The position numbers and the translations under genes were made by a program. Positions 48,826-48,940 of a stretch of 64,000 nucleotides of DNA are shown here, piece by piece (the first letter of the stretch is position 1; each line of letters starts with the position of its first letter). The stretch comes from Escherichia coli (GTDB taxonomy: Bacteria > Pseudomonadota > Gammaproteobacteria > Enterobacterales > Enterobacteriaceae). Where the stretch lies: assembly GCF_003334385.1 (NCBI RefSeq), contig NZ_QOWN01000015.1, one strand, 5' to 3'. The notes below the pieces were generated by a model that had not been told where the DNA came from, made no database searches, and worked only from the letters and a program-made list of their open reading frames with translations.

Positions 48826-48904
48826 AAAAAACCCATCAACCTTGAACCGAAATGGCGGGGTTGATGGGCTCCACAAAATGGGGACATCAAAGAAAAGCAG
48901 TGGC
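48826..48904 (-). ncRNA. rybB: sigmaE-dependent Hfq-binding sRNA RybB
   Basis: Minus-strand sequence GCCACTGCTTTTCTTTGATGTCCCCATTTTGTGGAGCCCATCAACCCCGCCATTTCGGTTCAAGGTTGATGGGTTTTTT matches RybB as I recall it, including the 3' terminator hairpin and U-tail. Confidence 0.9.
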
Positions 48905-48910
48905 ACTAAT

Positions 48911-48940
48911 TAAGACTGATGCCCTGCGGAAAAGTTCTGC
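48911..48940 (-). promoter_or_regulatory. Candidate sigmaE promoter of rybB (GAACTT-N16-TCTTA on minus strand)
   Basis: Minus strand reads CAGAACTTTTCCGCAGGGCATCAGTCTTAATTAGT immediately upstream of the RybB 5' end, fitting the sigmaE -35 GGAACTT / -10 TCNAA pattern. Confidence 0.6.

Follow-up and report, generated by a model that had tools for sequence, protein, structure and literature searches.

The RNA gene located between ybjL and rcdA in the 64,000-nt stretch of Escherichia coli DNA analyzed here (hereafter, the window) is almost certainly the chromosomal rybB gene of a K-12-like E. coli, transcribed from a sigma-E promoter. Read on the minus strand from 48904 to 48826, it encodes a 79-nt RNA, GCCACTGCTTTTCTTTGATGTCCCCATTTTGTGGAGCCCATCAACCCCGCCATTTCGGTTCAAGGTTGATGGGTTTTTT. 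The rybB gene is already known, indeed a textbook gene, and nothing in the gene itself is new; its placement at 48826–48904 (-), together with its promoter at 48911–48937, completes the annotation of the window, and no new biology follows from it. A gene track based on open-reading frames (ORFs) misses rybB, even though its RNA plays a central part in regulating the envelope stress response and its promoter is one of the strongest sigma-E promoters. The features of the locus are as follows.

48981–50666, minus strand: ybjL, the upstream co-directional neighbor (ORF and annotation)
48949–48958, minus strand: A/T tract AAATTTTTTT, resembling an UP element, at -54 to -45 (conserved only as A/T in the 116 listed loci)
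48931–48937, minus strand: -35 region GAACTTT (consensus GGAACTT; columns -33 to -27 conserved)
48911–48917, minus strand: -10 region AGTCTTA, containing TCTTA at 48915–48911 (columns -13 to -10 and -7 conserved)
48826–48904, minus strand: rybB small RNA gene, 79 nt, first base G at 48904 and last base U at 48826 (RF00110 and K-12 annotation)
48889–48904, minus strand: 5' seed GCCACUGCUUUUCUUU, containing CACUGCUUUU (read from the sequence; fits the consensus CRCUGCUUUU, PMC6694218)
48830–48870, minus strand: Rho-independent terminator hairpin, RybB nucleotides 35–75, with the core stem CCCAUCAACC / GGUUGAUGGG (minimum free energy fold and covariation)
48826–48831, minus strand: U-tail of the terminator, UUUUUU (read from the sequence; the run is kept in the listed orthologs)
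48823–48836, minus strand: 14-nt core ATGGGTTTTTTGTT, comprising the last 11 nt of rybB and 3 nt more (common to the ends of P2-like prophages elsewhere)
48270–48806, plus strand: rcdA, the convergent downstream neighbor (ORF and annotation; 19 nt lie between the end of its stop codon and the 3' end of rybB)

Identity and surroundings of rybB

When the whole window was searched against Rfam 15, a check that the first-pass annotation of this DNA had named, RybB (RF00110) matched at 48823–48901 (-) with 105.3 bits (E-value = 1.3e-20), compared with a gathering score of 40 for this family. The alignment covers model positions 1–79 of 79 without truncation, as expected for a member of the RybB family; relative to the annotated gene, the model begins 3 nt inside the 5' end and extends 3 nt beyond the 3' end. 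In the curated MG1655 record, the ncRNA rybB (b4417, "small regulatory RNA RybB") occupies NC_000913.3 887979–888057 (-), which corresponds exactly to window 48826–48904. Window positions convert to those of the collinear NC_000913.3 sequence by adding 839153, and the region 48790–49000 is 100% identical to that of E. coli K-12 MG1655. Over 5 kb surrounding rybB, the window departs from NC_000913.3 at two single bases, neither of them near the gene: T for C at 47917 (ybjJ) and G for A at 50298 (ybjL). The window is K-12-like, yet distinct from the MG1655 reference sequence. A megablast search placed the locus (48700–49100) in 5423 of the 5426 complete E. coli genomes; its matches in K-12 strains, MG1655 and C600 among them, are 100% identical, and the 161 nt around the RybB RNA were recovered at a coverage of at least 80% in 5419 of the 5426.

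The first-pass annotation had described a 79-nt minus-strand RybB with a terminal hairpin and a U-tail, and this description is borne out by the sequence, its fold, the Rfam match and the K-12 annotation. Its placement of the gene between rcdA (+) and ybjL (-) agrees with the annotated genes, and the interval that it delimited starts at 48826, the curated 3' end, and ends at 48940, 3 nt upstream of the -35 hexamer. It had also regarded the gene as known biology that the ORF track cannot show, and rightly so: the curated K-12 rybB is identical, and the PGAP-annotated RefSeq records of the rybB locus list no feature there, so that a gene track can indeed miss rybB.

Several other RNA features were observed elsewhere in the window. 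The K-12 record contains a second ncRNA, rybA, at 13572–13911 (-), overlapping the small protein gene mntS (13716–13844); the whole-window Rfam scan gave no match at the gathering threshold in this rybA/mntS interval. Above the threshold were naRNA4 at 61599–61679 (+) in the artJ–artM spacer (75.5 bits), and two ES036/CssrF matches, at 60577–60619 (+) in the rlmC–artJ spacer and at 18484–18526 (-) in the ybiT–ybiU spacer (42.2 and 41.6 bits, respectively). These three matches look like dispersed intergenic repeat elements and not like dedicated small RNA genes.

Orthologous loci were collected by scanning species-representative genomes with the first 20 nt of RybB, which yielded at least 120 loci in Escherichia, Salmonella, Citrobacter, Enterobacter, Klebsiella, Serratia, Yersinia, Hafnia, Proteus, Providencia, Xenorhabdus and other genera. 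Since an exact match to this 20-nt seed defined the set, the conservation of the seed is not an independent test; nothing else was fixed by the selection. For the upstream region, 116 distinct sequences were compared without gaps from the transcription start (+1), and for the transcribed part, 99 distinct sequences were aligned. In most of the 120 listed loci, the coding end of ybjL lies about 68–107 nt before the +1 of rybB, whereas rcdA is a variable neighbor across the listed orthologous loci. The position of the gene in the window, downstream of ybjL in the rcdA/ybjK–ybjL intergenic region, is that of RybB, and the same intergenic region (ybjK/rcdA–ybjL) has been reported for rybB (PMC1804206). 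On the plus strand (48795–48905), the same hairpin forms with no U-run after it, and read-through from rcdA would thus be antisense to RybB.

The sigma-E promoter and the ybjL-rybB spacer

The sequence GAACTT-N16-TCTTA, which the first-pass annotation had placed ahead of rybB, is present at 48937–48911: GAACTT occupies 48937–48932 and TCTTA 48915–48911, a gap of exactly 16 nt, and another 6 nt intervene before the first base of the RNA, G 48904. This arrangement is that of a sigma-E promoter (-35 GGAACTT, -10 (G)TCAAA, a spacer of about 16 nt, and +1 about 6 nt after the -10 element). Compared with the published sigma-E consensus (-35 GGAACTTTT and -10 GTCAAA; PMC1804206), AGAACTT matches GGAACTT at six of seven positions, whereas GTCTTA matches GTCAAA only partially, at four of six. 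The window has a single copy of the exact 27-nt pattern, where 0.02 would be expected, but a looser pattern (GAACTT-N15–17-TCNNA) is expected 1.2 times by chance per 64-kb window. Because the loose pattern arises by chance about once per window, the motif alone is weak evidence, and it is position and conservation that carry weight.

The conservation was assessed in the 116 distinct upstream sequences among the matches listed. Each of the columns -33 to -27 (GAACTTT) is conserved in 114–116 of the 116; in the -10 region, A at -13 is found in 108, and G, T and C at -12 to -10 as well as A at -7 are found in all 116. Nearly invariant in these loci are A at -13, A at -6, T at -4, A at -3 and T at -1, whereas the columns of the 16-nt spacer hold no more than 0.65 bit each, and the region beyond -55 also carries little information. 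The promoter elements are therefore held at a fixed distance from +1 in the 116 listed loci while the spacer drifts. Judged from the alignment, the conserved upstream columns correspond to the footprint that would be expected of a sigma-E promoter with an UP-like element. The earlier proposal of a sigma-E-type promoter has held up, given that no upstream columns in these loci other than those of the -35 and -10 regions are strongly conserved and that the literature on rybB agrees. A simple promoter/terminator scanner found no sigma-70 promoter in 48500–49300, as expected for a sigma-E promoter; for this locus, its output was uninformative. In published work, rybB is counted among the strongest and most tightly binding sigma-E promoters (PMC3326320, PMC12249550), and the sigma-E promoter set used for the modeling of UP elements includes it (PMC3326320).

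It is very improbable that this sequence represents no more than the 3' untranslated end of the ybjL mRNA with its terminator, the RNA arising by read-through and processing and having no promoter of its own. The arrangement of the genes does lend something to this idea: ybjL runs in the same direction, with its end 76 nt upstream of rybB, the ybjL–rybB adjacency is conserved, and no canonical terminator (hairpin plus U-run) was found in those 76 nt between the ybjL stop codon and the rybB +1 (window 48905–48980, minus strand). However, the sigma-E -35 and -10 elements are conserved at a fixed distance from +1 in the 116 listed loci, and rybB is retained in those Xenorhabdus, Proteus and Providencia loci in which, among the matches listed, the upstream ybjL is absent. 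Furthermore, the region upstream of rybB has near-perfect sigma-E boxes, and promoter fusions are inactive without rpoE, the activity being about background in a Salmonella rpoE deletion (PMC1804206); in genomic SELEX with the RpoE holoenzyme, the rybB promoter gave the highest peak in the E. coli genome, at 55-fold (PMC5493296). A sigma-E-induced primary 5' end at 48904 has already been reported for K-12 in the literature. So, read-through from ybjL may come in addition to the dedicated rybB promoter, but it cannot replace it.

For rybB with its own sigma-E promoter, what happens to the transcripts arriving from ybjL is a separate matter. In Enterobacter-type loci, a GC-rich hairpin with compensating stems at about -66 to -34 is followed by a U-run overlapping the rybB -35 element, and this hairpin has the appearance of a terminator for ybjL placed right against the rybB promoter. 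It is possible, though we consider it unlikely, that ybjL in E. coli and its closest relatives lacks a terminator of its own, so that its transcription would pass over the rybB promoter and stop only at the terminator of RybB. If it were true, ybjL transcription could occlude the sigma-E promoter or give a sigma-E-independent RybB precursor, and RybB output would be coupled to expression of the YbjL transporter.

The spacer was also considered as an RNA in its own right. By single-sequence folding, the spacer RNA alone reaches -24 kcal/mol (z = -3.5), but the consensus fold of 17 Escherichia/Citrobacter/Salmonella-type spacers retains only invariant pairs of the A/T tract, with a covariation term of -0.03. 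The spacer fold was rejected as a conserved RNA structure, being unsupported by any covariation in these 17 related loci, and a GCCCTG/CAGGGC pairing in the spacer was likewise rejected, since a column-wise test showed that it is not kept in register.

RNA structure and the prophage attachment site

In the predicted fold of the RybB RNA, the 5' part is open, and a long hairpin and then six U come after it (-25.2 kcal/mol; z = -3.3 relative to dinucleotide shuffles), and none of 200 shuffles folded as well. In the 99 distinct orthologous RNAs among the matches listed, compensatory double changes were found at five pairs of the terminator stem: 40:70 (AU to GC in 34), 41:69 (UA to AU in 23), 42:68 (CG to UA in 27), 44:66 (AU to GC in 31) and 45:65 (CG to UA in 24). 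Pairing at these positions is kept in 87–99 of the 99 listed orthologs; the compensatory changes track the phylogeny and thus represent few independent events. A U-tailed terminator with covariation, as is characteristic of the RybB family, is therefore present here, although the simple scanner missed it in 48500–49300 because the loop region of the hairpin exceeds the limit of that program. The U-tail of Hfq-dependent small RNAs is part of the Hfq-binding module. The 3' end of RybB has been used as an Hfq-binding scaffold (PMC6694218).

The 5' part is different from the terminator in its behavior. The minimum free energy fold proposes a short 5' helix between nucleotides 2–5 and 31–34, but the pair A4:U32 becomes A:A in 25 of the 99 listed orthologs, and no compensatory changes in this seed helix were found among the 99. 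The pairing is thus not maintained, which fits an unpaired and accessible seed. The 5' seed of RybB, GCCACUGCUUUUCUUU, expected to be conserved and single-stranded, lies at 48904–48889.

This pattern of conservation also bears on coding. ORFs do exist mechanically at rybB, namely a 43-codon TTG ORF at 48759–48890 (-) and short overlapping ORFs on the plus strand, but that the conserved object is a small protein is barely credible: the minus-strand ORF begins inside the RNA and crosses the terminator hairpin into freely diverging DNA, the conservation is that of a structured RNA, with covarying stems and with loop indels that are not multiples of three, and the curated K-12 record has no CDS there.

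The 14-nt core at the 3' end of rybB is a known attachment site of P2-like prophages, and it is empty in this window. The rybB site has been described as hotspot 29 for Felsduovirus prophages (PMC10121019), and Rybb prophages have been reported in E. coli W, B and Crooks, with none in K-12 (PMC3032704). In strain GCEC19, a P2-like prophage of about 33 kb lies between rybB and rcdA, with genes for ogr, D, tail, capsid, terminase, CI and a tyrosine integrase. ATGGGTTTTTTGTT is present at both of its junctions (L125 12001–12250; L126 20880–21090), rybB is regenerated intact, and the phage end adjoining rcdA carries its own hairpin and T-run. Among the 5,423 genomes, the 401-nt ybjL–rybB–rcdA query was not found in one piece in about 1,196, the cause of the split having been checked in one genome only; in some of the split genomes, the match ends exactly at the 3' end of rybB. 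The placement of rybB also marks an unoccupied site of prophage integration.

That the conservation reflects the attachment site only, with no RNA gene, can practically be dismissed: the 3' 14 nt are the core shared with the ends of P2-like prophages (PMC3032704, PMC10121019), but this core spans just the last 11 nt of rybB, conservation of the seed, body and promoter extends well past it, also in genera for which such prophages have not been shown, and rybB remains intact after integration, as expected for a phage that uses the 3' end of a gene. The attachment site is a secondary use of the rybB locus. In short, nothing was found against the reading of this stretch as rybB.

Regulation by RybB and comparison with related small RNAs

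The present analysis established what the gene is and where it begins and ends, how its promoter is built and conserved, the covariation in its terminator and its synteny; for its dependence on sigma-E and on Hfq, and for its targets, feedback and sponges, we rely on published work with the same sequence. On this basis, unfolded outer-membrane proteins would lead to the release of sigma-E from its anti-sigma factor, and sigma-E RNA polymerase would initiate at G 48904 from the GAACTT-N16-TCTTA promoter; the hairpin and U-tail would then end transcription to give the 79-nt RNA. With Hfq, the unpaired seed GCCACUGCUUUUCUUU would pair with many omp mRNAs (ompC, ompA, ompF, ompW, tsx, fadL and others), blocking their translation and hastening their decay. 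Fewer outer-membrane proteins would in turn lower the load on the envelope, constituting a negative feedback on sigma-E.

The published evidence is in line with this scheme. RybB builds up upon envelope stress and in stationary phase and speeds the decay of many omp mRNAs, and loss of rybB induces the sigma-E response, that is, negative feedback (PMC1804206). Hfq binding and the repression of omp mRNAs by RybB have been reported (PMC1804206, PMC7815308, PMC6694218). The sponges FtsO, RbsZ and 3'ETS-leuZ counteract RybB, as demonstrated by compensatory mutations in the chromosomal rybB (PMC7815308). The benchmark targets of RybB include fadL, fimA, fiu, lamB, ompA, ompC, ompF, ompW, tsx and others, and target predictors do poorly for this RNA (PMC4086111).

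One of the listed targets, fiu, is located in the window itself, at 96–2378 (-). When duplex formation of the 16-nt seed was predicted for the 5' region of each of the 60 genes in the window, fiu ranked second of the 60 with -16.1 kcal/mol, near 2417–2437 (-59 to -39 from the start codon). This duplex was rejected as evidence of a target, since the top twelve genes lie within 2.4 kcal/mol and fiu is not separable from non-targets.

Other small RNAs of the sigma-E response resemble RybB to varying extents. Like RybB, MicA and MicL of E. coli have a sigma-E-type promoter and repress envelope proteins in an Hfq-dependent manner (PMC1804206, PMC4102768); their sequences, loci and target sets, however, differ from those of RybB. 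MicL, for instance, is processed out of cutC, and at the rybB site Rfam matched neither MicA nor MicL. MicV and VrrA of Vibrio cholerae share with RybB the seed CRCUGCUUUU, sigma-E control and the repression of outer-membrane proteins; this common seed was recovered by selection under membrane damage, and E. coli RybB can replace MicV and VrrA (PMC6694218). Apart from the seed, however, MicV and VrrA have nothing in common with RybB in sequence and belong to other RNA families. In contrast to these, the RybB of K-12 (RF00110; b4417) and the RNA gene found here are identical in sequence, length, strand, neighbors, promoter and terminator, with no difference throughout 48790–49000.
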